IMG/VR virus record: IMGVR_UViG_3300021600_000003
Location: 19,249-83,248 of that record
Source of the DNA: a virus
Lineage: Duplodnaviria; Heunggongvirae; Uroviricota; Caudoviricetes
Reading direction: 5' to 3' (one strand)
Length of the DNA: 64,000 bases
Below the pieces are notes generated by a model, which was given only the letters and a program-made list of their open reading frames with translations, had not been told where the DNA came from and did no database searches. Of this stretch, positions 2,274-64,000 are shown one piece after another. The translations under genes and the position numbers were made by a program. The stretch's first letter is position 1, and the number at the start of each line of letters is the position of its first letter.

Positions 2274-2714
2274 TTAACATTTAATATTAATTTGAGGAAG
2301 ATTATCAGGAATAACTATATCTCCTTCTTCAGAGACTATATAGTTTCCTTCTTTTTGTATATTTTCTACTTCTTGTTTACGAATTTGCTGAGCTGACTGT
2401 TCTTTTAAATCATTTTCTATTTGTGCTTTACTTCTGTCTATTGCCTCAAATGCAGTATCATTTGGTTCTATTTTTATCTTTGTAACTATAGATGATTGTC
2501 CCATTGTAGAATAATTACCTATACTTATGTCTCTTGAACGTATACGAAATAAATCTCCCATATCTACACCATATTTAGTTTTAGCTTTAGCAGTTAAAGT
2601 AGCAATAGTATCTATTAAACGACTAGAAGGTAATGTAGTATATAATTCCATATTAGGTTTTACTAACATATGTTCTATCATATACTTTAAAGTGGAATCT
2701 TTAGAACAACTCAT
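2274..2714 (-). CDS. hypothetical protein, 146 aa
   Basis: ORF track entry. Tightly packed between two giant genes on the same strand. Confidence 0.45.
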   Translation of the reverse strand: MSCSKDSTLKYMIEHMLVKPNMELYTTLPSSRLIDTIATLTAKAKTKYGVDMGDLFRIRSRDISIGNYSTMGQSSIVTKIKIEPNDTAFEAIDRSKAQIENDLKEQSAQQIRKQEVENIQKEGNYIVSEEGDIVIPDNLPQINIKC

Positions 2715-2718
2715 ATTA

Positions 2719-5700
2719 TTATATTTTACAATTTAATGGATCAATTTCATTATCTTTTACATCATCAAGCATAAAGTCATTTTTACCATCTAATTTAACA
2801 CTTTGCTCCTTTGCTAATCTATTCATAAAATGAGTAATATTTGTATTACCTAATTTACTATATAGTTTTCCTGTATGAGATTTTTGATAAGGTAGTCCCG
2901 GACGATCTTTCTTCTTTTTCTGATATAAATCACTTTCATGAACTCCATATTGTTCACTTGTTTCATCTGGTGCAGCAGCTATTTCATTATTAATAATAAC
3001 AGGATTATTCCATTTTAAGTCAGGATTCATATCCTTAAACATCTTTTCAAATTGTTTAAGATAATTTGTAATAACTTCATTAGTTGCTGCTTCTGTAGTC
3101 TCTCCATCTTTAAAAGAAGCTCCTTCTTTAAGGAAACGATTAAAGTTATTAATAGATGTTTCTACTACATTTTTGATAATCATAGGAGGCACCAAGTAAG
3201 AGAATGAACCTTTATTTCTCTCTAGATGAGAAGATTGTGTAAGCAGGTAATATCCTAGTACGTTAAATATCTGACGTATTTCTTTTACATTTGCTGAATC
3301 TTTATAGAAGTCTAGTCTATCTTGGTTCTGTCTAAGTTTAGCCTCAATAGTAGGAAAGCTAGATATATCAAACATTACTAACTTCTCAAAGTTATCTCTA
3401 AGAACTGTTTCTTCAGCTTCTCTATCTTTGGGATTTGGAGATAGATTAAAGGTTATATAGTTTTGAGGTAAAGCATTTAATACATCTTTAAAATCTGGAA
3501 CACCATCTTTCATAGGATCAATACCATGTTCTGATTTAGTATCAATACTTTGTATAAGAGGTATTTCTCTTAACTCTGAGTACTTTGAAGTAAGAATATC
3601 CAACTGAGATGATAATAAACTTTTACTATATAAAGCTCCAATCTTTTCATCTTCAGATAAATTATCTACCTTAGAAAGAAACTCTTTAGCAAAGGCTTTA
3701 TAACTATCAGTACTCTCAACCAAAGGTCTAAGTAAAGGAGATATATCATATTCAAAAAACTCATAAAGTTTATTAGCATTCTCTCCATCCTTATAGATAA
3801 AGAAGTTAAGATATGTAGAATATATAAAATCAGATATTACTCTCATCTCTACCTTTCTTCTATCCTCTGGAGTACCAAATGTCTGCCATACTATATTCTG
3901 TAATACATTTTGGAATTCTTTAACAAAGAATTTGTTATCATTTATTAATATATTTGGAAATGCATTTGATAACATATTTTTAACAGTCTCATCATTATAG
4001 AAAGGAGTTACCATACTTTCATCTTGAATCTTATTTTCAAATTCAGGGTTTGACATACCTGATACTTGACGTGCTTGTTTTAAAGCTTCTGCATATGAAA
4101 TAGCAGATAAACTATTAACTTTTGTTGAGTTTCTTGATAATCCCTTAATAAATAATAAGTAGAACATATCACCATCAGCCAATACTGTTCCATAATAAGA
4201 AGCTATATCCTTAGCCATATCAGTATAAGATGGATTCTCTCTAAGAAACTGTTCCATATTTCTTTTATACTTTGGTGCATTACGCTGGAATTCTCCATAC
4301 TTTTCAGTAAAATCTGCTAAATCTTTTTCAGAAAAAGATAAGTGTTTATCACCTAAATAGTTCTGAGATGCTGGACCTGCAGCAAACATATATTGATTAA
4401 TACTAGTTTTTCCATTAGTTTCTTCATTCTTAACTCGATACTTTCCCCATCCCGGAAAACCAGTTTTAGCATCCGATATTGGAAATATTTCACTACCTGA
4501 CCATTTCTGAACAGAAGATACTAATGCATGTTTTGGACGAGCATCTGTACCTAATTTATCTAATTCATTTTGTACGTCTTGTACAACAGGATTATTTAAG
4601 AATAAAATTGTTCTTTCTAAAGGAACTCCTTGTGCCATTAACCATATCATTGGTTTAACATTTAACCAAGTTATTCCAAGAGAAGGAAATATATCAGCAT
4701 TTTTAAATAAGTCTAATAGAGAAGATACTTCTGCTGATAAGTCTTTTGTAGTTCTGTCCCCATTCTCATTAAATACTGATATTTTAATACCCTTACTTGT
4801 ATCTTTATTATACAATAAAGGAGTATGTACAAAACGTTTATATGTTTTTTCTTTATTGTTCTTTACTTCTTCAAGTAGATTTATACCTGTATCTATTCTC
4901 TTAAGTAATGCATTAAGTGGACCAGCACGATATTCTCTCTGAATAGTTAATCCTGATATCTCTAATAAAGGAAGCATAGAACGGAAACGTACTAGAGAAC
5001 CTAAAATAGAACGGATAGCAAAATTATTATGGTGATTTGCAATATTAGTTACATAACTCATTGCCTCTAGAGAGGTAAGTTGTCTACCTAATTCTACTGG
5101 ACTTCCTGTTTTTCTCTCAAGATTTTCTTCTGCTAACTTCTTAATCTTAGCTATAGAGTCTGTTTCTGTAAGAAAATCATAGTTCTCAGGAGCTTCCATG
5201 AACTCTAATATTGATGATACTATATCATTAGTTACACCTTTAATATAATTATCTCTTTTACTTTCCATCTCATTTAATTCCTTCATTAAAGGAGATGAGA
5301 TTCTTTTACCTTTATTCAAATCAACAATTAAAGAAGATACTGCATCTACGATATCATTAAATTCTCCTTTTTTTCGTAACTTAAATAAAGTAGATTTAGG
5401 ATCTATAAATCCTGCAACTGTACGATATCCATCCTCTTCAACAATAGTTAAATCTCTATCTAAATCACTAACTGTCTTACCTTTTAGTGCATATACCTCA
5501 TTCTCTAAAAATTCTTTCTTTATAGAATTTAATTGTTCATCATCTGTTGATGTATTTTTAGCTAATAAGAATGATTTTTCTGTACCAATTTTAGTAGATA
5601 ATTCTTCTATCTTATTTGTAATATCACTATATTGTTCAGTAGGACGCTTAATTATACGACCTAAACTATTTAGATACCTGAATGATGCAGTTACTGTATC

Positions 5701-8700
5701 AATATCATTATCACTACCTGTCTGAGCATAGAACTCAGGAGGAAGTAATATCATATCTCCAAATGCTTCTGGCAAGAATTCTCTTACTATAATATGTGAG
5801 GAGAAGTTTAAGTCTTGTAAAGGGATACGTACACCAATAAATGTAATAGAATCTCCATATGTATTTAACCACTTCTCATTACGTATTGCCTCATTTAGTC
5901 TTTTAAGAGTAGTAATACGTTCTCCATCTGGATGATTTAAGTTAAGAAGGGGATAGAACTGCTTACGAAAAGATATACGACTTTCTACAGGAAGTGTAGA
6001 TATAGCTTTACCATCTACAATTTTTAATCCATGCCATTTTAATTCTATTGTTCCTCTATATTCTTCTGGTAAAGAATCTTCTAGTGAAGAATAAGTACCA
6101 TCTTTATTCTTTTTTCTAAATTTAATTGGTTCATTTGAACCCATCTCAAATGACTGATAGAATTTGGTACCATTTAACTTTACTTTACGGAAATTATCAT
6201 CTACAATACCAGCAATTAAATCAATAATATTCTTTTGGAAAGGAAGAGCCTCTAAAAAAGTAGAAAAATTACCATCATCATTACTATTAAGTAAGTCTAA
6301 TACTTTTTCATCAATATCTCCTATCTCTAACATTCTCTCTCTCAAATATTTAACAAAGGTTGCTTTATCTCTCATTTTACCATCAATATCTAATCCCATA
6401 TCTGTAAGAGCACGAGATGAATTAATACGAATATAATCACTTAAACTTCTTACTACTTTCTTATAAGAATTAAGAAGAGTAGTAGATACTGTTCCATATT
6501 TCTGTTGAGATAGTAATCCCTCATAGAAGATAGATCGTAACTGAACAGCAAATGTAGAACGATCATTTAGATGAGTAGTATTTTGTTGAAACTTGAAAAA
6601 TCCTCCTGCGTGGAATGTTGAATGTAAAGTTTTACCAACAGTACTTGATAAACCATCTTTACTAAATACATTTTCTACTGGAGGAGTAAATGCTTTACTA
6701 CCACTATCCATTACCATATAATCAATATCCTCTCCATACATCTTATCAAAAAGAGGACGTGTAATTCTATTCATATCAAATTCAGGAAGTAATACCCTTA
6801 ACCCCATCTTATCAAACGAAGGAGTCATTGGAGAATTAGTCTCATAATAAATAGGTCCTGTTAATGCATATTTAGATACATTAAAAGAAGAGTAACTACC
6901 ATCCTTATTAGGACCATTTTTAATATGATCACTTTCTTCATCTGAAAGTTCATGACCTAAACCTTGTTTTAATAGTAATATCTGTCTAATATATTCTTTT
7001 TCATCTTTATCCCAATCCCATACCATCTCTCTCATTCTCATAAAACGATTAGTATCTAAGTTAAGATAAGCACCAGCATCAGCAACTTCCATATCTTTAA
7101 AAGCAGTTAATATATTTACTTTCTCAACTCTCATTTGCTCAAGAGTAATATTAGCTCTTTCTCCTGTAGATTTCTGCTTACGAAGTAATAATAAGGCTTT
7201 AAGCATATTATCATCTTTTAAAGCAATACTCTCCATTTTAATATCCTTCATAACTACTTTCTTAACTAACTGATAGTTTTTTTGAGAAGTAATACCTTTT
7301 GATGATTGATATGTATCTTTTAGTGATCGAGCTGCTGTCTGAGCTGCCATAGCTTCTGCCATAATCTCATCTACCATATTGATAGAACCATTATTAGCAA
7401 TAATCTTTCTTCTCTTGATTGGATCTTTATAGTAAGTGTAATCTCCAAAGAATAGTAAACTATCCTCCATTGTCATAATGAAGTCATTAGCTATAATATC
7501 TCTAAATATACCATCAGATAACTGACCTAGTGTATTTATTTTCATATAGAATGGATTACGAACAGAGTTAATAGCTGATAGAGTATATAGTATATTATTA
7601 CTTTTCTCAGATAAGCTATTATTAAATACATTCTTATATGAGTTATCATTTGTTATTGCAACCTTCTCAAAATAATTACTTATCTCTAAATTGATTTGAT
7701 TGAAAAGAGTAGGATCTTTTACCTCAAGACGACTCATAAGAGTATTCATATCCCCACCTTCTTCTCTTATAAATGCTTTTATTTTTCCTCTAGAAATAGG
7801 AAGCATTTCATCAAATACACCTAATTTATCTAATCCTTTATTAGCATGATTAATATCTCTTTTAGCATTAGCATCATCTAGATAGTATTGGAACTTCCAA
7901 GCTGCATACTGTATATAATTTCTAACCTGATTAAGGAAAGTAGGATTAACAAAACCATCTCTTTCAATATTAACAGCTTTAATGAACTTTCTTTCTATAC
8001 CATCAGTTTCTTGTAAAGATAATCTCCAAGCTGTATTAGATGTCTCTACTCTTCTCATTTCAGAAGAACCATCAGACTCATATAGTACAGCATCCATTAA
8101 CATTTTCTCTTCTGCAGATGAATCTTGTACTCTCTTACTTTCTAAAGAGTCCTCACCTATGTCTGATATCTGAGATATAATAGATATACCCATTCTCATA
8201 TTTGGTACTTTAGTACCAGTCTGATTAAATATTCTATTAAATAACCAAGAGTTTATAATTTGAGGATTCTTTATTGGATCTAAGTGAGATAATGCTGGGA
8301 ACTTTGCAAAGTCACTAAAACTATTAATGTGCTCATTTATAAGCATTTCTGTTACCAACATGTTATTTGGTAAGAAGTGAGAGAATTGCATCTTGTCTAT
8401 AACAATCATAGAACCTGATGAGAAACGTTTATGATAGTTTTTCTCAATACGAGCTAACTGTTGGAATAGAGGAAGATATGCTGCAAATACTTTATATTTA
8501 GGATCTCTAGTTAATTTTCTATCCTTACCATCAAATAACATTTTACTAACAGGACTTGGAGAGAAAATACGACGAGCAAATCCTTGTAACTCCTCCTCCT
8601 TTTCTCTTAAGGTGTTCATAGCAATTATCTTTTGTACACCATCTAAATCTGGATTAATATTATACAGTTGTAGCTGTTTCCACTCTTTAACTAAGTTTAC

Positions 8701-35868: not shown

Positions 35869-36002
35869 ATGTACAGCGAAAATCAGCGATTTCCTAATAT
35901 TTAATGTTAAGAAATTGTTAAGAGTGGGATGGAGGGTTCTCGAAACCCATGCACCTACTTTTTACAGACGTTGTGACTTGCCCTGAGTATCATCCCGAGT
36001 TG

Positions 36003-36085
36003 CGGAGAGAATGGGACTCGAACCCACAAAGCTTTTACACCCGACAGTTTAGCAAACTGCTCCTATACCATTAAGGGACCTCTCC
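36003..36085 (-). tRNA. tRNA-Ser(GCT)
   Basis: Hand-folded cloverleaf: acceptor GGAGAGG/TCTCTCC, anticodon loop TTGCTAA, long variable arm, T-loop TTCGAGT. Confidence 0.8.
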
Positions 36086-36090
36086 AAGTG

Positions 36091-36178
36091 CGGTAAGGGT
36101 GGGATTCGAACCCACGGGACTTTTACATCACACAAGTTTTCAAGACTAGGCTCTTTTGACCACTTGAGTACCCTTCCT
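36091..36178 (-). tRNA. tRNA-Ser(TGA)
   Basis: Hand-folded: anticodon loop CTTGAAA, long variable arm, T-arm GTGGG-TTCGAAT-CCCAC. One A-A mismatch in the acceptor stem. Confidence 0.65.
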
Positions 36179-36304
36179 TATTTAAAATACTGACGTTCTC
36201 CTAGAAGATAAATCTTTGCTAGAAAGAAATACTTCACTCTTCTTTTTGACTGCCTTTTTCGAATAAATTTTCGAATAGCTTGTCTTTTTGTTAATTTAAT
36301 CATG

Positions 36305-36378
36305 TGTCCAAGACGGGACTCGAACCCGTAAAATCCAGATTTTAAGTCTGACATGTATTCCAGTTCCATCACAAGGAC
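36305..36378 (-). tRNA. tRNA with anticodon TAA (Leu by anticodon) but a class I, short-variable-arm structure; possibly atypical or a pseudogene
   Basis: Anticodon arm TCAGA-CTTAAAA-TCTGG and T-arm ACGGG-TTCGAGT-CCCGT. The acceptor stem has two U-U mismatches. 74 nt. Confidence 0.5.
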
Positions 36379-36383
36379 GTTAG

Positions 36384-36470
36384 TGAGGAGTGAGAGATTC
36401 GAACTCTCATGCTACTATTATTTCGCCTCGGTTTCTAAAACCGAGTTGTCTACCGTTCCAGCAACTCCCC
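36384..36470 (-). tRNA. tRNA-Leu(TAG)
   Basis: Acceptor GGGGAGT/ACTCCTC, anticodon arm TCGGT-TTTAGAA-ACCGA, long variable arm, T-loop TTCGAAT. 87 nt. Confidence 0.75.
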
Positions 36471-36948
36471 GTCTGTTTCTTGTTTGTTGGGCATGACAAT
36501 TAGGACATAAAATCTGTAGATTCCAAAGTCCATTATTGTAATGATTACTATCTTTATGGTCCAGTTCTAATACTACTGGGTCTCCCATCCATTCTGTTAT
36601 ACCACAGATTTCACATTGCTCTTTCTTCAATCCTTCCTTTATCAACTTCTTTTTAAGAGTGTGACTGTTTATAGTACTTCCATTGTAACAATAAGAAAGT
36701 ACAGGTTTTTTATTATGAGCTATTCTTCCTTTCGTTACTGACTTACCAAGGAAATGTGAAGTATCAATTTCAAAGTATCCAACTCTTTTCTTGATGTAAC
36801 ACTGAGCTCCTGTCATAGGTTTCACTCCTATATTTCTACATACATCAGCCCAAGTTTTAGAATTCTTTACAGCTTTTTCCAAGCTTTCTTTTGTGTGTTT
36901 ATTTCTCATTGGTATACATTTGATACCAATATACAACATATATGCCAA
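36418..36948 (-). CDS. HNH homing-type endonuclease, 176 aa
   Basis: CEICGITEW...LELDHKDSNHYNNGLWNLQILCPNCH HNH/zinc-finger motif. The 3' end of the ORF reads through the 5' half of tRNA-Leu(TAG). Confidence 0.8.
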   Translation of the reverse strand: MAYMLYIGIKCIPMRNKHTKESLEKAVKNSKTWADVCRNIGVKPMTGAQCYIKKRVGYFEIDTSHFLGKSVTKGRIAHNKKPVLSYCYNGSTINSHTLKKKLIKEGLKKEQCEICGITEWMGDPVVLELDHKDSNHYNNGLWNLQILCPNCHAQQTRNRRGVAGTVDNSVLETEAK

Positions 36949-37000
36949 TTTACCAAATCTTTTTTAAGACCTGCGTGTCTACCAATTTCACCATATCGCC

Positions 37001-37034
37001 AAAATAAGAAACCCCAGCTTCTTCAGGGCTGGGG
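37001..37034 (-). terminator. intrinsic terminator between promoter P2/micro-ORF and the HNH gene
   Basis: Minus-strand RNA forms ccccagc-(9-nt loop)-gcugggg, followed by UUUCUUAUUUU. Confidence 0.55.
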
Positions 37035-37067
37035 TTTCGAGGAATAATCCTCTTTCAAGTGGTATTT

Positions 37068-37133
37068 TTACATACCATACCCAGCTCGATTACTCAAGAG
37101 TGATAAACTGGAATATGATAAATATTGCTTCAT
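37068..37133 (-). CDS. leaderless micro-ORF, 21 aa (MKQYLSYSSLSLLSNRAGYGM), between promoter P2 and an intrinsic terminator; may be a small-RNA gene instead
   Basis: ATG 8 nt after the -7 element TATATTTG. TAA stop at 37068-37070. A terminator hairpin follows at 37001-37034. Confidence 0.25.
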   Translation of the reverse strand: MKQYLSYSSLSLLSNRAGYGM

Positions 37134-37140
37134 TAGAAAA

Positions 37141-37176
37141 CAAATATACGAATAATATTTTAATCTACCAAATTTA
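37141..37176 (-). promoter_or_regulatory. Bacteroides-type promoter P2, near-identical copy of P1
   Basis: Minus-strand read TAAATTTGgtagattaaaatattattcgTATATTTG. Confidence 0.6.
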
Positions 37177-37374
37177 TTTTTCATCTGGTAAGTTTATGAT
37201 TTCAAGACCTTTCTTTCTCATAGCCTCACAAAATAGGTCAAATCCACCCTGCCAAGTTATTACCTTAATAGTTCTTTCTGGAGGATTAGTATAGAAAGCA
37301 TCTTTGACTGCCTTCTCAATCTCATCAAGAGTTATTGGTTTATTCTCCATTTGTAAGTTTTTGTTTGACATCAT
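37174..37374 (-). CDS. hypothetical small protein, 66 aa
   Basis: ORF track entry. One of three partly overlapping small minus ORFs between the tRNA blocks. Confidence 0.3.
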   Translation of the reverse strand: MMSNKNLQMENKPITLDEIEKAVKDAFYTNPPERTIKVITWQGGFDLFCEAMRKKGLEIINLPDEK

Positions 37375-37591
37375 GAATCATTGGTCCTAACTTTTCTCCA
37401 TTCTCATTTACACGTACTCCATGTACGAAATGGGTTTTACCTTGTTTATAGGCTCTTAAGTGTTTGTTATGGAAATTTCTACCATCTCTTCCTTCTTTCT
37501 CGAGAATCTCTCTATAGTTATCAGATGTTACTAACAATCCAAGAAATTCTCTGTTTGTCTTTGATTTCCCAAGTGCATTTTTCTGGGTCAT
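37340..37591 (-). CDS. hypothetical small basic protein, 83 aa
   Basis: ORF track entry. Same orientation as the surrounding genes. Confidence 0.3.
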   Translation of the reverse strand: MTQKNALGKSKTNREFLGLLVTSDNYREILEKEGRDGRNFHNKHLRAYKQGKTHFVHGVRVNENGEKLGPMIHDVKQKLTNGE

Positions 37592-37724
37592 TATACTTTA
37601 TTTTACTACGTCTATTAAAATTTCTCAAGTAACGTAAATATCTACGCTCTTGAGGTGATAAATTTGCTATCATATCACAAATATAATAACAATTTATATA
37701 GAATCCAAATTTATTTTTGTACAC
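37521..37724 (-). CDS. hypothetical small protein, 67 aa
   Basis: ORF track entry. Confidence 0.3.
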   Translation of the reverse strand: MYKNKFGFYINCYYICDMIANLSPQERRYLRYLRNFNRRSKIKYNDPEKCTWEIKDKQRISWIVSNI

Positions 37725-37744
37725 CTAGAAGGATTTGAACTTTG

Positions 37745-37820
37745 TACCCTATGAAGGACTCGAACCCTCAAAATCTCCTAATTCGTATTCAGGTGCTTTA
37801 TCCAATTTAGCTAATAGGGC
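37745..37820 (-). tRNA. tRNA-Arg(ACG)
   Basis: Acceptor GCCCTAT/ATAGGGT, D-stem GCT/AGC, anticodon arm CCTGA-ATACGAA-TTAGG. Confidence 0.75.
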
Positions 37821-37825
37821 ATGTG

Positions 37826-37898
37826 GGTGACTAAGGGGAATCGAACCCCCATTTGTAAGCTTCACAGACTTTTGCTTTACCGTTAAGCTATAGCCACC
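37826..37898 (-). tRNA. tRNA-His(GTG) with an encoded G-1
   Basis: Anticodon loop CTGTGAA, discriminator C. An extra 5' G (plus-strand c at 37898) pairs with C73. Confidence 0.75.
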
Positions 37899-37900
37899 AG

Positions 37901-37971
37901 TTTCCTTGTCAGGGGTCGAACCTAAGATAACAGAGTCAAAGTCTGTTGTGTTACCATTACACTACAAGGAA
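37901..37971 (-). tRNA. tRNA-Gln(TTG)
   Basis: Perfect acceptor TTCCTTG/CAAGGAA, D-stem GTGT/ACAC, anticodon arm ACAGA-CTTTGAC-TCTGT. Confidence 0.75.
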
Positions 37972-37976
37972 ATATG

Positions 37977-38049
37977 CACGTATGAGAGGACTCGAACCCC
38001 TGACGCTTGGTTTTGGAAACCAACGCTCTACCAACTGAGCTACACACGC
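37977..38049 (-). tRNA. tRNA-Trp(CCA)
   Basis: D-arm GCTC-AGTTGGTA-GAGC, anticodon arm TTGGT-TTCCAAA-ACCAA, T-loop TTCGAGT. Confidence 0.8.
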
Positions 38050-38055
38050 ATGATG

Positions 38056-38128
38056 TGGTACAAAGTGGTATCGAACCACTATCTCAGGATTTTCAGTCCT
38101 TCGCATAGACCATCTTTGCTATTGTACC
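38056..38128 (-). tRNA. tRNA-Phe(GAA)
   Basis: Perfect acceptor GGTACAA/TTGTACC, anticodon loop CTGAAAA, T-arm AGTGG-TTCGATA-CCACT. Confidence 0.75.
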
Positions 38129-38133
38129 TTTAG

Positions 38134-38208
38134 AGATCAGTAAGAGATTCGAACTCTTGATTTTACAGTTTTGCAGACTGTTGCCTTTGACCACTCAGCC
38201 AACTGATC
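38134..38208 (-). tRNA. tRNA-Cys(GCA)
   Basis: Perfect acceptor GATCAGT/ACTGATC, anticodon arm ACAGT-CTGCAAA-ACTGT, T-arm AAGAG-TTCGAAT-CTCTT. Confidence 0.75.
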
Positions 38209-38213
38209 ATTTG

Positions 38214-38285
38214 AGCCACATGAAGGATTCGAACCATCACCCTCTGATTACAAAACAGAATAGCTACCGTTACTATTAATGTGGC
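38214..38285 (-). tRNA. tRNA-Thr(TGT) (alternative fold gives GTA/Tyr)
   Basis: Perfect acceptor GCCACAT/ATGTGGC and D-stem ATAG/CTAT. The anticodon stem is imperfect; the best fold has loop TTTGTAA. Confidence 0.55.
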
Positions 38286-38291
38286 ATTATG

Positions 38292-38365
38292 TCTAGATGG
38301 CAAGATTCGAACTTGCGACCCCTTGCTCCCAAAGCAAGTGTTCTACCTGACTGAACTACATCTAG
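38292..38365 (-). tRNA. tRNA-Pro(TGG)
   Basis: Perfect acceptor CTAGATG/CATCTAG, D-stem GTTC/GAAC, anticodon arm CTTGC-TTTGGGA-GCAAG, T-arm GCAAG-TTCGAAT-CTTGC. Confidence 0.8.
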
Positions 38366-59828: not shown

Positions 59829-60371
59829 TTAATAATCCCAGTTAGGGTTGTTTAAGTTTTCCCATGCAAATACTAATCCTTTATCACTATCAAACTTCTC
59901 TGTATAAAAATCAGGAGTAAATATACTATCACTCTTGAGATAAAGAGATGCAAATCTGTATTGGGATGAATCTAGGATATTTCGTATTGCAGTTTTTACT
60001 TTATGAAAATTCTTTCCTCTTAAGGTACCACTATCTATAAAGAGATACTTATCTTTTTTCTCTATATACTTAGTTATCCATCCAGCAAGATACTTATCAA
60101 AGTGTCTATATTCTCTATCCAATGTATCCCAAACCTGAGACATTGTTGGATAGGGCATTGGTAAATCTATTACCTCAAATAACTCATTATTGTTTAAGAA
60201 GGATATACGATGATTTACTATCTGAGTTAAATAAGAAGAATAATCTGGTGAACAGTTTATAATAGTAATATCAGAATTTACCCATCCACTATCTATAATC
60301 TTATTAGCTAAGATAGAAATATCCTCTATCTCTTTCTTGTAACTTATATAAAAGTAGTTATTTTTCTCCAT
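59829..60371 (-). CDS. hypothetical protein, 180 aa
   Basis: ORF track entry. Confidence 0.5.
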   Translation of the reverse strand: MEKNNYFYISYKKEIEDISILANKIIDSGWVNSDITIINCSPDYSSYLTQIVNHRISFLNNNELFEVIDLPMPYPTMSQVWDTLDREYRHFDKYLAGWITKYIEKKDKYLFIDSGTLRGKNFHKVKTAIRNILDSSQYRFASLYLKSDSIFTPDFYTEKFDSDKGLVFAWENLNNPNWDY

Positions 60372-60774
60372 TTGTTAATTTCTCATAATCATCTATAGAT
60401 AATGTTTTGATTTTGAGTACCTTCTCTTCTTTTGGTGGAAATAAAGTCTCATACTTTTTTGCAAACTCCTGCAATTCATCCTTAAACTTCTTCCTTGACC
60501 AAGGAACTAGAAGCTGTCCAACATTAGCAAAGCGTACTATACAAGCATCAAACTTTTTGTTTAATGCTTTATCTAGTGAGTCTCTAGTTGGTAACCATCT
60601 ATCTTCCATTCCAATTACATCCCAATAGGGATACTCAGCCACTCCGAATATAACATCATAATCTTCCTCAGATTCTGATGGTAAAGTTCCTAGGCGTTCT
60701 TTTTCCTGATTTTTTCTTTCCTCATTATCACCATCTACCATGACAATTGGGAACTTAAATAGTTGTTCTAGCAT
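60358..60774 (-). CDS. hypothetical protein, 138 aa
   Basis: ORF track entry. Confidence 0.45.
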   Translation of the reverse strand: MLEQLFKFPIVMVDGDNEERKNQEKERLGTLPSESEEDYDVIFGVAEYPYWDVIGMEDRWLPTRDSLDKALNKKFDACIVRFANVGQLLVPWSRKKFKDELQEFAKKYETLFPPKEEKVLKIKTLSIDDYEKLTNGEK

Positions 60775-60777
60775 ATA

Positions 60778-61428
60778 TTATTTACCAATGTGTATTTTTT
60801 GAAAGTAACCCACCTTGGCTTGTGGTTTACCTGTTATAAAATTATATCCAACTCCTAACTGGAGAATATTTTCCTTCTTATTCTTTAGCAGTAATCCTAA
60901 ATCAAAAGTCATATCTGGACCAGTAACCGTTCCACCAACAAACCATTGGTTCTTAATAGGTGCATATATGGTATTAGTAATAGTAGTTGTAGTATGAGGG
61001 AAGTATAGTTGATAGGAAGACTTAGTCTCTTTAAGAGTATTCTCTGATACTGTCTGGTCTAAATTAACTACTCCTACTCTATTTCCAGCTGTATCCTTTA
61101 GAGTAATAGAATCTGAATACCTCTTAAGTGATAGAAACTTAGTCACTAACTCTTGATACTGAGTAGTTAGTTTAGCTATATCAGCTGAGGCATTATATTG
61201 CTGAGGTATAGTAATAGGTAAAATTGTCTGACCTTGTTGCTGTGGTTGGTAAGGAGGATTAATCACAATAGGTTGAAGGGTCTGAACAGTATGTGTAGTT
61301 GTATCATGAGTATTCTGAGGAGCATTTGTATTATGTCCACATCCACCAAACCAAAATATAAGGAAGGCTACTCCTATAAGGATAACTCCAATATTATGCT
61401 TTAAGATATCTATTAAGTGTTGTTTCAT
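60778..61428 (-). CDS. putative membrane-anchored or lipoprotein, 216 aa
   Basis: N-terminal hydrophobic segment ILIGVAFLIFWFGGCGH, followed by a Thr/Gln-rich region. Confidence 0.5.
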   Translation of the reverse strand: MKQHLIDILKHNIGVILIGVAFLIFWFGGCGHNTNAPQNTHDTTTHTVQTLQPIVINPPYQPQQQGQTILPITIPQQYNASADIAKLTTQYQELVTKFLSLKRYSDSITLKDTAGNRVGVVNLDQTVSENTLKETKSSYQLYFPHTTTTITNTIYAPIKNQWFVGGTVTGPDMTFDLGLLLKNKKENILQLGVGYNFITGKPQAKVGYFQKIHIGK

Positions 61429-61682
61429 TAAAGTATTGTTTCGTCTGAAAATCTGTGTGTCTTAATAACTCTTCCTGATCCATCTAGTAGTCCTAACCAA
61501 TCTCCAACTTCAAGACGTTTAAGATATACATCATTATTCGTAATAATCTTAAGATGTGAATTATCGATATCAAGAGTAATAACAATCTCTTCAAGATAGG
61601 GAAATCCTTTCTCTATAGTAGTACCATCATGAGAGATATACTTTTTAATCTTCATCTTCTTTAATTTGAATACTTTTAACAA
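61428..61682 (-). CDS. hypothetical protein, 84 aa
   Basis: ORF track entry. Confidence 0.35.
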   Translation of the reverse strand: MLKVFKLKKMKIKKYISHDGTTIEKGFPYLEEIVITLDIDNSHLKIITNNDVYLKRLEVGDWLGLLDGSGRVIKTHRFSDETIL

Positions 61683-61845
61683 AAACTATATTCTTCCCCT
61701 CATATATCTGAATCTCAATAAGATTCCTTATAGCAAGTGTATTAAGCTTATGTCCAACTGTAAGGGAAGATACATTTGGGATATAATAGGCTCTCCATCC
61801 TTGGTGCTGAAGATCCCTTGTTAACTCTTTGAATGTCATATGCAA
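61645..61845 (-). CDS. hypothetical protein, 66 aa; first gene of the minus-strand block
   Basis: ORF track entry. Confidence 0.3.
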   Translation of the reverse strand: MHMTFKELTRDLQHQGWRAYYIPNVSSLTVGHKLNTLAIRNLIEIQIYEGKNIVFVKSIQIKEDED

Positions 61846-62100
61846 ATATATAGTATTTATACATGTTCTTCCAAATATTTACCATTCTTTTAACATTTCT
61901 TTAACATATATATATAATTTATAATTTTTATATTTTTTATATTTTTTAAAATTTTTCTAAAACAGAATGTTGGAGAGGATATATGAAAATGATACCCCAT
62001 GAAGAAAACCATCTGCCTCCTACCCCCTATGTTTATTTTAAGCAAGTGAATTTCTGAGGAAGGTATTAACAAAGTATTTTTTAACCAAATATATAAAACA
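61846..62100. promoter_or_regulatory. AT-rich divergent intergenic region where transcription switches from minus to plus
   Basis: No long ORF. Runs of tttttatattttttaaaatttttc. Minus-strand genes lie to the left and plus-strand genes to the right. Confidence 0.5.
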
Positions 62101-62328
62101 ATGAAAGCTTTACGCATTCTGTTCATTCTCGTTGGGATAATGGGAATAACAACAACATCTCTCATGCTCGTTGACATCTGGCATGGCAGGGTACAACATT
62201 TAAGGATGTCTCCTGAATACCATGCTAATACCGATTGGGGAGCAATTACAATCCTCATCATGATGTTCTGCATGTCAACATTCATGGTAGTGTTCACCTA
62301 TTTCTTAACCAAAAACAATAAGTCATGA
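62101..62328 (+). CDS. small membrane protein, 75 aa (two predicted TM helices)
   Basis: ILFILVGIMGITTTSLMLV and ITILIMMFCMSTFMVVFTYFL hydrophobic segments. First gene of the plus-strand block. Confidence 0.4.
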   Translation: MKALRILFILVGIMGITTTSLMLVDIWHGRVQHLRMSPEYHANTDWGAITILIMMFCMSTFMVVFTYFLTKNNKS

Positions 62329-62621
62329 AGACAATTCAAACAGGCTGTATTCAAACAGTCTTATCTCAATCAGGCAAGCTGGAGTGTTACAAATGTACAT
62401 TTCCTGTTCCTGAAGATGTAGCATGTGCATTGCAATTCGTTGATATGCAGCACATTAGAAACAAATGGTATTATGTTCGAACATCTATGGACTTCGAACA
62501 ATTGTGGTATTGGGTTAATCTAATGCAAGTAACAGTCAATGATTACAAAGTTACTATCTATGAGCAGAAGAAGAACATTGCTTTATTTAAATGTGTCACT
62601 TATAAAACAAACATATTATGA
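62325..62621 (+). CDS. hypothetical protein, 98 aa
   Basis: ORF track entry. ATGA overlap with the preceding gene. Confidence 0.4.
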   Translation: MKTIQTGCIQTVLSQSGKLECYKCTFPVPEDVACALQFVDMQHIRNKWYYVRTSMDFEQLWYWVNLMQVTVNDYKVTIYEQKKNIALFKCVTYKTNIL

Positions 62622-62760
62622 ACACAATCTCAGACAAAGTGTTTAACTGGTTATACGAACAAATCAAACCAGTAAGGCAAGGTATTCTTGTTGTCATTCC
62701 AACAGGCAAGTTGTTGGACAAATTGTTATTACAATGGTACGAAGGTACAGGTAATGACTA

Positions 62761-62804
62761 AGCCAAGGAGGAGTTTATGCAGGGTTCGATTCCCTGCTTG
62801 GCTC
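62761..62804 (+). other. tRNA-like minihelix 1 (acceptor stem plus T-arm, no D or anticodon arms)
   Basis: agccaag-(13 nt)-caggg-ttcgatt-ccctg-cttggct-c. Perfect 7-bp acceptor pairing and a canonical T-loop. Confidence 0.55.
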
Positions 62805-62838
62805 GAAAGGGACACAAAAAACCCTTATTTATTATATT

Positions 62839-63057
62839 ATGCAAATCGTAGGTTATCAACTAAATGTACTTGGACGTACAATGGTTGTAAAACAGAAACC
62901 CACTAATGAAGTGGTTAAATTCATCTCTAAAGAGCAATTTGATAAAGGAGTTAATTCTCTTGAGTCAAGATTCCTTGTAACTGAAGGATTACCATTGCTT
63001 GATGGAAATATTATACAGGTATTTTATATTAAATCATCTAAAAAGAAAACATCATGA
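62839..63057 (+). CDS. hypothetical protein, 72 aa
   Basis: ORF track entry. Confidence 0.4.
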   Translation: MQIVGYQLNVLGRTMVVKQKPTNEVVKFISKEQFDKGVNSLESRFLVTEGLPLLDGNIIQVFYIKSSKKKTS

Positions 63058-63344
63058 AAGAAGTATTTAAAGCAGCACTGAGAGAACTGCTAATAAAACT
63101 CAGATTGGAAAAGAATCCAATACCATCAACAGTTGATGAAGACGGAGAAATTGATGACGATAAATATCAATCAGCTCTAGAAGTACAATGGGACAATGAA
63201 GATAATAACATCTATGAGAGAATAGATAGGGTTAGAGAATTACTTAAGGATGATGATTGGGTTGATGATGATGAATGGCTTACAGATGCATTTAAGATTC
63301 TTACTGAAGAGGGTTATAAATTCACAATATCTAAAACATTCTAA
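63054..63344 (+). CDS. hypothetical acidic protein, 96 aa
   Basis: ORF track entry. Asp/Glu-rich. Confidence 0.45.
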   Translation: MKEVFKAALRELLIKLRLEKNPIPSTVDEDGEIDDDKYQSALEVQWDNEDNNIYERIDRVRELLKDDDWVDDDEWLTDAFKILTEEGYKFTISKTF

Positions 63345-63348
63345 ATTA

Positions 63349-63395
63349 AGCCAAGGTAGGAGTGTAGGTTGGGGTTCGATTCCTCAGCTTGGCTA
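63349..63395 (+). other. tRNA-like minihelix 2, paralogous to minihelix 1
   Basis: agccaag-(14 nt)-ttgggg-ttcgatt-cctcag-cttggct-a. Shares agccaagg, aggag, ggttcgattcc and gcttggct with element 1. Confidence 0.55.
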
Positions 63396-63435
63396 TAAAC
63401 TTCTGGGAGGAGTTATAAAACCCACAACTATTACA

Positions 63436-64000
63436 ATGAAATATCTATTAATTCAAAACAAAGGAGAAATTATCCCACAAGACATTATCTTGATGGGCTC
63501 ATCGACCAAGCGTGGTGCAACTGATAAGATTGGTCAGTTTGGTAGTGGTAGTAAATATGCTCTTGCATGGCTGCTACGTAATGATTGTCAACCAGCTATA
63601 TATGCTGGTGTCAATGAAATCCCTATTGAGAAGAGGATGACTGAGCATCGTGGTATTCCACGGGATGTCATCTATGTAAATGGTGAGAATACCAATATCA
63701 CTACTGAATTGGGATTGAAATGGACAGCATGGATGGCATTACGAGAACTCATTAGTAATGCTATTGATGAGAGTGATGAAGTGGTGGAAACAATACAGAC
63801 TCACAATATTAAGGATTATACTAAGGATGGTATAACCTCAATATTTATCCCAATCATTGATAGTATCAAAGAGGTAATGGATAACTATGAGTATTACTTT
63901 GCTTTCGAGAGAGTACCTGATTGGATTGGTGAGAAGGGTATGTTATACTTAAAGACTGAGCAAAGTGAGATAAACATCTATCGTAAAGGTATTCGTTGTC
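63436..64000 (+). CDS. hypothetical protein, truncated by the window edge (at least 188 aa)
   Basis: ATG at 63436 with the frame open to 64000 (own translation MKYLLIQNKGEIIPQDIILMGSSTKRGATDKIGQFGSGSKYALAWLL...RELISNAIDE...). Confidence 0.5.
   Translation, partial: MKYLLIQNKGEIIPQDIILMGSSTKRGATDKIGQFGSGSKYALAWLLRNDCQPAIYAGVNEIPIEKRMTEHRGIPRDVIYVNGENTNITTELGLKWTAWMALRELISNAIDESDEVVETIQTHNIKDYTKDGITSIFIPIIDSIKEVMDNYEYYFAFERVPDWIGEKGMLYLKTEQSEINIYRKGIRC

Follow-up and report, generated by a model that had tools for sequence, protein, structure and literature searches.

Two short elements on the plus strand of the phage DNA studied here belong to a small family that mimics the top half of a tRNA alone. 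In such an element, a 7-bp acceptor stem is stacked on a 5-bp T stem with a canonical T loop, and in the short linker a GG may stand in for the D loop. The fold is conserved with covarying pairs, the elements lie on the coding strand between genes, and the family has neither an anticodon arm nor an encoded CCA. We put the probability at about one half that these elements are processing signals for an early polycistronic mRNA, cut by the tRNA-maturation enzymes of the host. The DNA analysed, called the window below, is the whole stretch of 64,000 nucleotides.

The two copies in the window

A sequence-only reading had described a pair of tRNA-like minihelices in this DNA. The pair is real, since a 7-bp acceptor stem and a canonical T arm can be read in the sequence of both copies. 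The scanner named below looks for a 7-bp stem, a linker of 8-26 nt, a 5-bp stem and a TTCRANN loop. Their parts are as follows.

62761-62804, plus strand: minihelix copy 1 (7/7 and 5/5 pairs by the scanner; top covariance-model match in the window)
62761-62767: AGCCAAG
62768-62779: linker, GAGGAGTTTATG
62780-62784: T stem, CAGGG
62785-62791: T loop, TTCGATT
62792-62796: CCCTG
62797-62803: CTTGGCT
62804: discriminator, C
63349-63395, plus strand: minihelix copy 2 (pairing by the scanner; covariance-model match)
63349-63355: AGCCAAG
63356-63369: linker, GTAGGAGTGTAGGT
63370-63374: T stem, TGGGG
63375-63381: T loop, TTCGATT
63382-63386: CCTCA
63387: extra G
63388-63394: CTTGGCT
63395: discriminator, A

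The acceptor strands AGCCAAG and CTTGGCT pair perfectly, as had been claimed (7/7 Watson-Crick in each copy). The T stems are likewise fully paired (5/5 each) with a single G-U, in copy 2, and between the copies they differ by two compensatory changes (C-G to U-A and A-U to G-C). The discriminator had been placed directly after the acceptor stem, and an unpaired base does stand there in both copies (C 62804 and A 63395). To that description has to be added the extra G of copy 2, which separates the T stem from the 3' acceptor strand or, read in another way, gives a 6-bp T stem with a U-G pair. Three relatives also have an extra nucleotide or pair at this junction. The spacer between the 5' acceptor strand and the T arm had been given as 13-14 nt; the linkers actually measure 12 and 14 nt. 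Both copies are without an anticodon arm and without an encoded CCA.

A search of the window for GGTTCGATTCC with at most one mismatch gives 10 matches, against 0.28 expected. Eight of them fall in the T arms of genuine minus-strand tRNA genes; the minihelices account for the other two.

Thermodynamic folding does not favour the minihelix fold of the window copies. In the minimum free energy (MFE) structure of both copies, the linker GGAG pairs with the 3' side of the T arm. The enforced minihelix fold lies 1.2 and 4.0 kcal/mol above the MFE in the two copies.

Copy 1 also contains a Shine-Dalgarno-like AAGGAGG followed by an ATG. This was rejected as a start signal and is treated as fortuitous, because it opens an ORF of only 24 codons and is not kept in copy 2.

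Searches against known RNA families

ARAGORN finds 12 tRNAs in the window and makes no tRNA call at either copy. Rfam at the gathering threshold returns the same 12 tRNAs only, and the tRNA model RF00005 has no match at E<=10 between 62600 and 63500. With these results, and with just 12-14 nt between the acceptor strand and the T stem, a canonical tRNA identity was rejected. Nor are the copies the 3' halves of full tRNAs whose 5' halves had been missed, because both acceptor strands lie within 44-47 nt.

At E<=10, copy 1 has a sub-threshold match to mascRNA-menRNA (RF01684), at 24.0 bits against a gathering score of 42.5 (E 0.026). It is the sole Rfam family that matches copy 1 end to end. Copy 2 has no match to this family at E<=10. 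Membership was rejected on the score and on the context, which is a phage genome and not the 3' end of a eukaryotic lncRNA. A third copy, outside the window, reaches 21 bits against the RF00005 gathering score of 29.

Other known elements were considered in the same way. A tmRNA tRNA-like domain was rejected: pair 3-70 is C-G in the window copies and is never G-U in 16 elements. ARAGORN reports no tmRNA in the window, and in its two copies just 12-14 nt separate the halves. An N4-type promoter for a virion RNA polymerase does not fit either. Such promoters are simple DNA hairpins, with stems of 5-7 bp and loops of 3 nt, upstream of early transcription starts. Here the loop has 7 nt and a T-loop sequence, and the hairpin is nested in a second stem. 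An intercistronic RNase III site of the T7 type, with about 20 bp or more, does not fit stems of just 7 and 5 bp.

Between 61400 and 64000, sigma-70-type promoters and terminators show no excess over shuffles. None of 50,697 phage records matched 60000-64000 at near identity. No description of these minihelices was found in Rfam or in the literature searched.

Conservation and covariation

Relatives of the two copies were compared in an N-padded, equal-length alignment of 16 distinct elements. An alignment of the raw elements by MAFFT was set aside because the linkers differ in length and the 5' acceptor strand was misaligned.

The 7-bp acceptor stem, the 5-bp T stem (together a 12-bp stack) and the unpaired discriminator recur in the family. 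In the 16 elements, 97.9% of cells are paired. Changes on both sides of the pair occur in 10 of the 12 pairs, with 28 extra pair types. The covariation score is 0.985; shuffles reach 0.21, and slid registers no more than 0.18. The stem sequences are almost wholly different among the elements while the pairing is kept. Selection thus acts on the fold and not on the sequence. The earlier proposal to look for the same architecture in related phages is borne out by this extensive compensatory change.

Seven positions are invariant in all 16 elements (G53, T54, T55, C56, A58, T60 and C61). The T loops found in the family, TTCGATT, TTCGAAT, TTCAAGT, TTCGAGT, TTCAACT and TTCAAAT, fit the consensus GTTCRANYC. 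The first pair is A1-U72, with A1 invariant, and the discriminator is a pyrimidine in 15/16 elements; as a set, A1-U72 and the pyrimidine discriminator are kept in 15-16/16. Elements are 44-52 nt long, with linkers of 12-21 nt that carry a conserved GG.

The sequence-only reading had called the elements an acceptor stem plus T arm only. This holds for the window copies, which have no D-arm-like hairpin, and it is slightly too strict for the family: a mini-hairpin of 3-5 bp is present in the linker of 11/16 relatives and absent from the two window copies. This hairpin looks like a vestigial D arm.

Evidence of membership can also be provided by a covariance model from which the window copies are left out. 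Such a model (R2) was built from 13 elements of other genomes. In the window it ranks copy 1 first (27.3 bits, E 0.0014) and copy 2 second (24.6 bits, E 0.0068), above everything else, and genuine tRNA T arms score 17.5 bits or less. With model R1, the copies score 31.8 and 36.2 bits. The structural part of the sequence-only reading thus withstood the refuting conditions that it had set for itself.

Distribution and position in related phages

The family has at least 17 distinct members, spread over 9 phage contigs, related or unrelated. Every one is found on the coding strand where small genes leave a gap, and thus in sense orientation at cistron boundaries of the predicted mRNA. Of the 17 instances listed, 14 have the upstream stop codon at -8 to +4 nt from base 1, and the next ATG follows 19-63 nt 3' of the element. 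Several elements begin within the upstream stop, sharing its final one or two bases, or contain the end of the upstream ORF 8 nt inside.

A strict scan of 100 kb of DNA from the clade gives 14 matches on the coding strand and none on the opposite one; shuffles predict 0.14. In 1.2 Mb of other phage loci, the corresponding counts are 0 and 3. The third copy of the genome studied here (L117, 18900-18946) scores 22.9 bits with model R2.

The position of the element before one gene is maintained across the clade. In 6/7 clade genomes a minihelix lies immediately upstream of a gene of the phrog_8203 family, and its sequence is different in each. In the seventh genome (L068), the same gap contains a 25-bp hairpin (23 continuous pairs plus 2) at 2421-2477, with a dG of -30 and a z of -8.5. 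It is predicted to be an intercistronic processing site of the classical RNase III type.

The family is narrow. An alignment of phrog_8203-family homologues led to 64 IMG/VR loci, where a single-protein search had found no related loci, and the minihelix is missing from about 60 of them. These are loci of more distant relatives, so that early operons of crAss-like phages do not in general require the minihelix. Likewise, the early intergenic regions of phage phi14:2 contain no minihelices. In the relative L003, single real tRNAs stand between genes of the same plus-strand block.

Neighbouring genes and leader modules

Both copies lie in gaps between small plus-strand ORFs, as originally described. 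The features around them are these.

62618-62761, plus strand: small ORF upstream of copy 1 (47 aa)
62807-62826, plus strand: weak hairpin AAGGG-N10-CCCTT, of uncertain status (dG -4.7, z -1.8)
62839-63057, plus strand: small ORF after copy 1 (72 aa), no family match
63054-63344, plus strand: small ORF before copy 2 (96 aa), stop 4 nt upstream of the minihelix
63398-63423, plus strand: leader module directly 3' of copy 2, hairpin AACTTC-TGGGA-GGAGTT plus ATAAAACCC
63436-64000, plus strand: start of a conserved gene of about 390 aa, of the phrog_8203 family

Base 1 of copy 1 (A) is the final base of the TAA stop of the upstream ORF. The weak hairpin sits in the 35-nt leader that runs from this minihelix to the ATG at 62839. 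The exact 96-aa protein encoded before copy 2 is present on 6 public contigs. The ORF at 63436 can be extended in frame to 63286, through copy 2; the N-termini of the family begin with MKYLLIQN. One public gene call reads an ORF straight across copy 2.

The leader behind copy 2 contains an exact 24-mer, CTTCTGGGAGGAGTTATAAAACCC (63400-63423), 12 nt 5' of the ATG at 63436. It is found unchanged in 39 metagenome contigs, 8-16 nt 5' of an ATG every time, and does not occur in any of 185,579 genomes of bacteria and archaea. The 39 contigs have no minihelix at that site and almost no protein in common with these phages. Therefore, the 24-mer is an independent module. This bears on a comparison with the relative L001, in which the 75 nt at 63349-63423 are 97.3% identical to 6802-6876 and the flanking proteins are only 31-47% identical: part of the nucleotide identity is due to the module.

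A possible role in processing of early mRNA

Like the sequence-only reading, which had suggested punctuation or processing, stability, or decoy functions, we infer function from the sequence: the elements would be transcribed as RNA, RNase P and RNase Z would recognise them, and expression would be affected. The process would start with transcription of the elements within a rightward (plus-strand) polycistronic mRNA of this distant crAss-like phage and its relatives, where they would stand exactly between cistrons. The tRNA-maturation enzymes of the host would then take each minihelix for a pre-tRNA. RNase P would cut 5' of base 1, at or a few bases from the upstream stop codon, and RNase Z would cut after the discriminator, as is proposed because no CCA is encoded. 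The released RNA of about 45 nt may be tailed by the CCA-adding enzyme. The early operon would thereby be split into individual messages with defined ends, allowing separate stability and translation.

The anatomy of the elements, with its 12-bp stack and T loop, matches the features that RNase P, RNase Z and the CCA-adding enzyme are known to read. The tRNA-processing pathway is needed by the phage anyway, because its 12 tRNA genes have no encoded CCA. The plus-strand block encodes no tRNA-processing or tRNA-binding protein detectable in Pfam, PHROGs or PDB sequences.

Where base 1 falls within the upstream stop codon, an exact RNase P cut would leave an upstream message without a stop. This is a cost to the processing model, though stop-less messages are tolerated in the case of plant nad6 and ccmC. 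The A1-U72 pair and the pyrimidine discriminator are unusual for bacterial pre-tRNAs and could point to a different, specific partner.

Alternative explanations

Another model holds that the minihelices act in trans. Once released, and possibly CCA-tailed, they would serve as a decoy or sponge for a protein that reads the acceptor/T-arm half. Candidate targets are a host defence toxin acting on tRNA acceptor ends, by modification or cleavage, and a host enzyme to be diverted. Consistent with this, the mimicry is limited to the acceptor/T half, leaving no anticodon arm for anticodon nucleases to hit, several copies per genome stand at the very start of the early block, and the conserved A1-U72 and discriminator resemble a specific identity set more than generic tRNA likeness. 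A decoy would, however, need neither abutment on stop codons nor an intercistronic position. The acceptor sequences are highly diverse, so that recognition of shape fits better than mimicry of one tRNA, and no partner protein was found in the neighbourhood by Pfam and PHROGs searches. We consider a decoy function unlikely. It is compatible with processing, because processing would be needed to release the decoy, and the two may be joined in one scheme: a dsDNA bacteriophage would have evolved non-decoding tRNA top halves for punctuation, and the excised, CCA-tailed minihelices would then have become abundant decoy small RNAs. These would compete for defence toxins that modify or cleave acceptor ends, for RNase P or for the CCA-adding enzyme, and A1-U72 with the pyrimidine discriminator would be their identity set. 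This combined scheme is unlikely. A further possibility is that the elements act in cis and are not cleaved. The compact fold might block 3'-to-5' exonucleases at the end of the upstream cistron, or it might organise the next cistron's leader, for instance by leaving the conserved leader module accessible, in hosts of a group that initiates translation without relying on Shine-Dalgarno pairing. The next ATG is always 19-63 nt downstream, four elements lie directly 5' of a widely conserved leader module, and the alternative pairing of the linker GGAG with the 3' side of the T arm suggests a possible switch. Yet a generic stable hairpin would suffice for such a role, which leaves the invariant T54, T55, C56 and A58, the 7+5-bp geometry and the unpaired discriminator unexplained. 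Moreover, the same leader module is used in 39 other contigs without a minihelix. Stabilisation or translational control without cleavage is decidedly unlikely.

The elements could also function as DNA, either as a promoter or hairpin for a virion-packaged RNA polymerase or as a boundary for the shuffling of early-gene cassettes. The promoter-early stem-loops of T4-type phages offer a parallel for the second role. Cassettes of minihelix plus leader do look exchanged, given the 97% nucleotide identity beside proteins that are 31-47% identical. In addition, the same leader is found behind different minihelices, and a related minihelix occurs in a locus with no protein detectably shared with these phages. 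For the first role, it is relevant that no early promoters are known for crAss-like phages and that the phi14:2 enzyme works on DNA that is single-stranded or denatured (bioRxiv 10.1101/2020.03.07.982082). Against both, conservation falls on precisely the positions that make up the RNA T-loop fold, and every copy is on the sense strand. The structure is asymmetric, with a stem around a linker and an inner hairpin, which makes it a poor candidate for extrusion from duplex DNA; the copies within one genome are too different to provide homology for recombination. A DNA-level function is thus very unlikely. Finally, the elements might be functionless, as tRNA genes decayed by internal deletions or as tRNA-derived att remnants. 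Phages of this group are rich in tRNA genes, and the relative L058 has a tRNA-like sequence with a D arm and without an anticodon arm (5976-6032). Decay does not explain pairing kept through many double substitutions, a narrow length range, or recurrence in the same gap before the phrog_8203-family gene of divergent genomes. The att-like origin raised in the sequence-only reading fares no better: there are at least 3 copies per genome with many sequences, placement is strictly on the coding strand and next to stops, no integrase context was seen, and beyond the generic T loop the copies have no similarity to the phage's own tRNAs. We regard functionless remnants as extremely improbable.

Significance

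The crAss-like phages are among the most abundant viruses known. To our knowledge, their early transcription and RNA processing are almost uncharacterised, no early promoter motif has been described, and the small early genes have no known function. If the processing model is true, a compact RNA signal that recruits host tRNA-processing enzymes would provide a testable handle on operon expression, and the concept of tRNA punctuation and of t-elements would be extended from organelles to phages. The elements also form a natural set, with covariation built in, of minimal RNAs that are candidate substrates of RNase P, RNase Z and the CCA-adding enzyme. If they are decoys instead, they would represent a new kind of RNA-based counter-defence. 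Annotation pipelines overlook such minihelices or translate across them.

Comparison with known systems

The closest parallels are tRNA-shaped elements that do not decode. Plant-mitochondrial t-elements were found through the motif GGTTCRANYCC (Forner et al. 2007, PMC1920247). They direct RNase P and RNase Z cuts that create mRNA ends, even inside reading frames, and their products carry a non-encoded C or CCA (PMC1920247). Like the phage minihelices, t-elements are non-canonical tRNA-like structures with a perfect GGTTCRANYCC T arm, an acceptor-like stem and no decoding function, embedded in mRNA precursors beside or inside reading frames. Unlike them, they are organellar, are processed by a protein-only RNase P, and are mostly single, sporadic tRNA relics. 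The phage minihelices form a multi-copy family with its own signature (A1-U72, pyrimidine discriminator, a GG linker of 12-21 nt), and their cleavage is only predicted.

Another parallel is mascRNA and MEN-beta (RF01684), which also place a tRNA-like fold inside a longer transcript for recognition by RNase P and RNase Z, a recognition that is putative here. These RNAs are eukaryotic and nuclear, with a full cloverleaf and a reduced anticodon arm. The likeness is one of shape and not of membership, because copy 1 reaches 24 bits where the gathering score is 42.5.

In mitochondrial tRNA punctuation, and with the tRNAs in phage operons, tRNA-shaped intercistronic units set cut sites, as the minihelices would. 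Reading frames abut those units too and sometimes share stop-codon bases with them. There, however, the marks are functional tRNAs, whereas phage minihelices cannot decode. The early RNase III hairpins of T7 likewise represent intercistronic processing by a host RNase, as proposed here, and L068 has such a hairpin; they use another nuclease and another RNA signal.

The tRNA-like domains of tmRNA and of bacterial and phage Y RNAs (YrlA) share with the minihelices an acceptor-like stem, a T arm, a D-loop-like GG and the lack of an anticodon arm. For a YrlA module whose acceptor stem has 7 bp, cleavage by M1 RNA (RNase P) in vitro and addition of CCA in vivo are reported (Chen et al. 2014, PMC4201824). 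Both RNAs are 100-400 nt long, compared with 44-52 nt for the minihelices. The minihelices are not tmRNA, because they lack the alanine identity pair G3-U70 as well as an mRNA-like domain and a tag ORF. They are probably not YrlA either: the flanks, read by eye, showed no complementarity that would form a Ro-binding helix, and there is no GNCGAA motif and no identifiable adjacent Ro60 gene. A DUF7788/DUF2828 protein, analysed from fragments, starts 850 nt 3' of the third copy. Its AlphaFold model (pLDDT 69) gives generic alpha-solenoid or helical-repeat matches (Z<=7.6) and no Ro60. As a separate observation, phi14:2 has a tmRNA-like gene.

Sequence and structure of the two window copies

The sequence-only reading had placed two tRNA-like minihelices in the window, each consisting of a 7-bp acceptor stem, a linker and a T arm, and had given their sequence correctly:

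62761-62804 (+), copy 1: AGCCAAG, GAGGAGTTTATG, CAGGG TTCGATT CCCTG, CTTGGCT, C
63349-63395 (+), copy 2: AGCCAAG, GTAGGAGTGTAGGT, TGGGG TTCGATT CCTCA, G, CTTGGCT, A

In both copies the acceptor stem is 7/7 Watson-Crick and the T stem is 5/5 paired. Between the copies, the T stems differ by two compensatory changes and one change from G-C to G-U. The linkers are 12 nt (copy 1) and 14 nt (copy 2) long, so an anticodon arm is impossible, as that reading had held. ARAGORN and Rfam at the gathering threshold agree, reporting 12 tRNAs in the window with neither minihelix among them. An identity as tRNAs is thus rejected: the anticodon arm is impossible, ARAGORN is silent, and RF00005 matches neither copy in Rfam at E<=10. 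At the same E-value limit, the mascRNA-menRNA family matches copy 1 from end to end with 24 bits (threshold 42.5). CCA is not encoded in either copy.

The window holds 10 occurrences of the motif GGTTCGATTCC with at most one mismatch (0.28 expected). Copies 1 and 2 account for two of them; the remaining eight are T arms of genuine minus-strand tRNA genes between 36.0 and 38.4 kb. In the unconstrained minimum-energy fold of the window copies, the T arm pairs through its 3' side with GGAG, and the minihelix fold lies 1.2 and 4.0 kcal/mol above this minimum.

The linker of copy 1 also contains AAGGAGGAGTTT-ATG, a Shine-Dalgarno-like site with a start codon at 62777 (62769-62851, +), which opens a 24-codon ORF reaching the next leader. 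Since this ORF is conserved neither in copy 2 nor in relatives, it is probably fortuitous.

A family of minihelices in related phages

In a pattern scan, two IMG/VR contigs proved to contain an element resembling copy 2. A stretch of 75 nt there is 97.3% identical to the window, whereas identity between the flanking proteins is only 31-47%. These contigs, and contigs with close homologues of the downstream gene, were scanned for a 7-bp stem, an 8-26-nt linker (8-24 nt for counts), a 5-bp stem closed by the loop TTCRANN, and the 3' acceptor strand right next to it. More elements were found, with stem sequences quite unlike one another.

5' acceptor strands of scanner elements, by phage locus compared with the window
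L001: AATAAAG, AGCCAAG, AACCAGC
L067: (A)AGTAGC, ATCAGTA, AACCAGT
L068: AACTGA(A)
L069: AGAAAAG, AACCAGC
L070: ACCACTC, AGAAAAG, AACAGTA, ACCAAGG
L073: AATAAAG, AACCAGC
L046: AAGAAA(T)
L116: TCCTCAG

In 100 kb of DNA from the clade of crAss-like relatives there are 14 strict matches on the coding strand and 0 on the opposite strand, against 0.14 expected from mononucleotide shuffles. Other phage loci, 1.2 Mb in total, give counts of 0 and 3.

When 16 distinct elements are aligned at equal length, pairing holds in 97.9% of cells, a circular figure because the elements were chosen for pairing. The diversity of pair types is non-circular evidence and is matched by two independent lines. Covarying copies, which the sequence-only reading had proposed to seek in related phages, do exist: the architecture is the same, 10 of the 12 pairs (66 cells) have changed on both sides in a compensatory way, and 28 additional pair types occur. 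The covariation score is 0.985, compared with 0.21 for shuffles and at most 0.18 for slid registers. As the first independent line, a covariance model, another kind of check proposed there, was trained on 13 elements from other genomes, leaving out the window copies and the near-identical element L001_B. It ranks copy 1 (27.3 bits, E ~0.001) and copy 2 (24.6 bits, E ~0.007) top in the window, while genuine tRNA T arms score at most 17.5 bits, and it also detects a third copy in L117, a further contig. As the second line, six of seven clade genomes have a minihelix in the gap before the conserved phrog_8203-family gene, the gene that directly follows copy 2; the stems there are AGCCAAG, ATCAGTA, AACAGTA and AACCAGC. 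The minihelix is real and is selected as an RNA fold.

Among the 16 elements, A1, G53, T54, T55, C56, A58, T60 and C61 are invariant, U72 is present in 15, the discriminator is C or U in 15, and base 1 is preceded by TA in 12. Every linker contains GG. When the two main stems are imposed on the fold, a mini-hairpin of 3-5 bp forms in 11 of the 16 linkers, and the GG lies within its loop or at the edge of it. The stem of this mini-hairpin covaries (CCAA/TTGG, CTAG/CTAG, CCAG/CTGG, AGG/CCT, CGG/CCG), and the mini-hairpin may be a vestigial D arm. The window copies have only GGAG in the linker, without the mini-hairpin.

The L116 element (IMGVR_UViG_3300011979_000363, 1471-1522, -) pairs TCCTCAG with CTGAGGA across a 21-nt linker, and its T arm, GCATG TTCGAGT CATGC, is identical to that of elements in L069, L070 and L073. 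Its locus shows no detectable resemblance to the clade at the protein level, a hint that the elements have spread horizontally. In L058, a more distant relative, the stretch 5976-6032 (+) is tRNA-like: it has an acceptor stem, a T arm and a full D arm (TAGCTCAGTGGTAGAG), but only 9 nt where the anticodon arm would be.

Genomic setting and a third copy

The window has a G+C content of about 30-35%, and its minus-strand ORFs include giants of 3156, 1689 and 1570 aa. The best relatives of its large terminase are crAss-like phages (~26-27% identity). The strand switches near 61.9-62.1 kb, and the minihelices lie within the first 1.3 kb of the rightward small-gene block. The 12 tRNA genes (36002-38365, -) form two tight clusters with 2-5-nt spacers on the structural-gene strand.

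ENA contig k141_130021 (L117; 106,845 bp) is the same genome, identical across its 10,947-nt overlap with the window. It contains a perfect minihelix 8.6 kb to the right of copy 2, beyond the window end:

L117 18900-18946 (+), third copy: TATGGAA, 16 nt, GAGAG TTCGAAT CTCTC, TTCCATA, C

This copy scores 21 bits against RF00005 (threshold 29). Its base 1 is U, not A. It sits in a 505-nt gene-free gap, and a DUF7788/DUF2828 protein of 564 aa starts 850 nt downstream.

The public gene call for the ~390-aa gene after copy 2 runs 150 nt further 5', in frame through copy 2 and its leader module (63286-63435; L117 10233-10382). This is an over-extension, since homologues begin at MKYLLIQN (63436). 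Minihelices can be concealed within called ORFs.

Placement and leader modules

In 14 of 17 listed instances, the stop codon of the preceding gene is -8 to +4 nt from base 1; base 1 of copy 1 is the last A of the upstream TAA. The next ATG follows 19-63 nt after the element, and the stretch between is modular. AACTTC-TGGGA-GGAGTT-ATAAAACCC directly follows copy 2 and the elements L001_B, L070_b and L073_a. Some minihelices are followed by a second type of leader, in which a conserved CAG-C[CG]TAGGAA-CTG hairpin precedes the ATG and is enclosed by an outer stem whose strands have changed in a compensatory way (AAGTTTCC/GGAAACTT versus AAGTTCTC/GAGAACTT). Minihelix and leader seem to behave as exchangeable cassettes.

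Leader modules
Second leader type: L001 7883-7934; L069 1186-1237; L070 1838-1892 and 3127-3189
Exact 24-mer CTTCTGGGAGGAGTTATAAAACCC: window 63400-63423; L001 6853-6876; L070 528-551; L073 1237-1260; L075-L113

The 24-mer contains a small hairpin and GGAGG. Exact copies occur in 39 metagenome contigs of ocean, lake and sludge origin, always 8-16 nt 5' of an ATG. These contigs have no minihelix and share almost no protein with the clade, and none of 185,579 bacterial and archaeal genomes contains the 24-mer. It is therefore an independent phage module, leader- or promoter-like, and may be a promiscuous one. In the one such contig examined (L089), the downstream gene looks ParB-like by motif, and many others open with a similar N-terminus.

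Possible function

The favoured reading, with a probability of about one half, is that host RNase P and RNase Z would treat the minihelix as an intercistronic processing site. Transcription, cleavage and CCA addition are inferred, and several features speak for this reading. Of a tRNA, the minihelix copies the acceptor/T stack of 12 bp, the fold of the T loop, the free discriminator and possibly an elbow contact. These features are read by RNase P, RNase Z and CCA-adding enzyme, for which minihelices are model substrates. A tRNA-like module with such a stem is reported to be cut by M1 RNA in vitro and CCA-tailed in vivo (Chen et al., PMC4201824). None of the 12 window tRNA genes encodes CCA, so the host must have a working RNase Z/CCA route. 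In one relative, single tRNAs lie between genes of the same block, so that block transcripts are cut at tRNA shapes anyway. Finally, in L068 the gap upstream of the conserved gene, occupied by a minihelix in the other clade genomes, contains at 2421-2477 (+) a hairpin of 25 bp (23 continuous pairs plus 2; dG -30 kcal/mol, z -8.5). This hairpin resembles an RNase III-type site, and such intercistronic sites are known from the T7 early transcript.

Against host processing, a cut at base 1 would remove stop-codon bases in several cases, A1-U72 with a pyrimidine discriminator is atypical of bacterial pre-tRNAs, and the family is restricted to a narrow clade. The minihelices might instead act in trans as decoys, which is unlikely; slightly less likely still, they stay uncleaved and serve as stabilisers or translation elements. 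That they are promoter or recombination signals at the DNA level is improbable, and descent from a decayed tRNA or att remnant is hardly credible.

Relation to known RNAs

The closest analogue of host processing at minihelices would be the plant-mitochondrial t-element. T-elements were identified via the GGTTCRANYCC motif, their ends are mRNA ends, and some lie inside reading frames; they give small RNAs with non-encoded C/CCA, and the cuts are ascribed to RNase P and RNase Z (PMC1920247). The phage minihelices have the same T-arm motif, and plausibly represent a phage version of this tRNA-punctuation principle. They share part of their shape with mascRNA, tmRNA and YrlA, but fall outside the definitions of mascRNA and tmRNA. 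The family is absent from Rfam, and such elements are not described in the literature searched (crAss-like phages, phage minihelices, tRNA punctuation, tRNA-like decoys). A large survey of structured viral RNAs mentions tRNA-like candidates only where they overlap ARAGORN calls (PMC10690425).

Early transcripts of Cellulophaga phage phi14:2 (L074, NC_021806) reportedly have no common upstream motif (bioRxiv 10.1101/2020.03.07.982082). Its genome has an isolated second T-arm-like match at 1826-1842, and a tmRNA-like RNA at 4031-4500 (+) that is not annotated in the record (ARAGORN tmRNA, tag GSSVQKLAMVA*; RF00023 46.0 bits, gathering 47, E 2.6e-16). This RNA lies between 2904 and 4602, in a long gap free of genes. 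The same gap probably includes the g005-g006 junction, which has been reported to be an early non-coding RNA of very high abundance.
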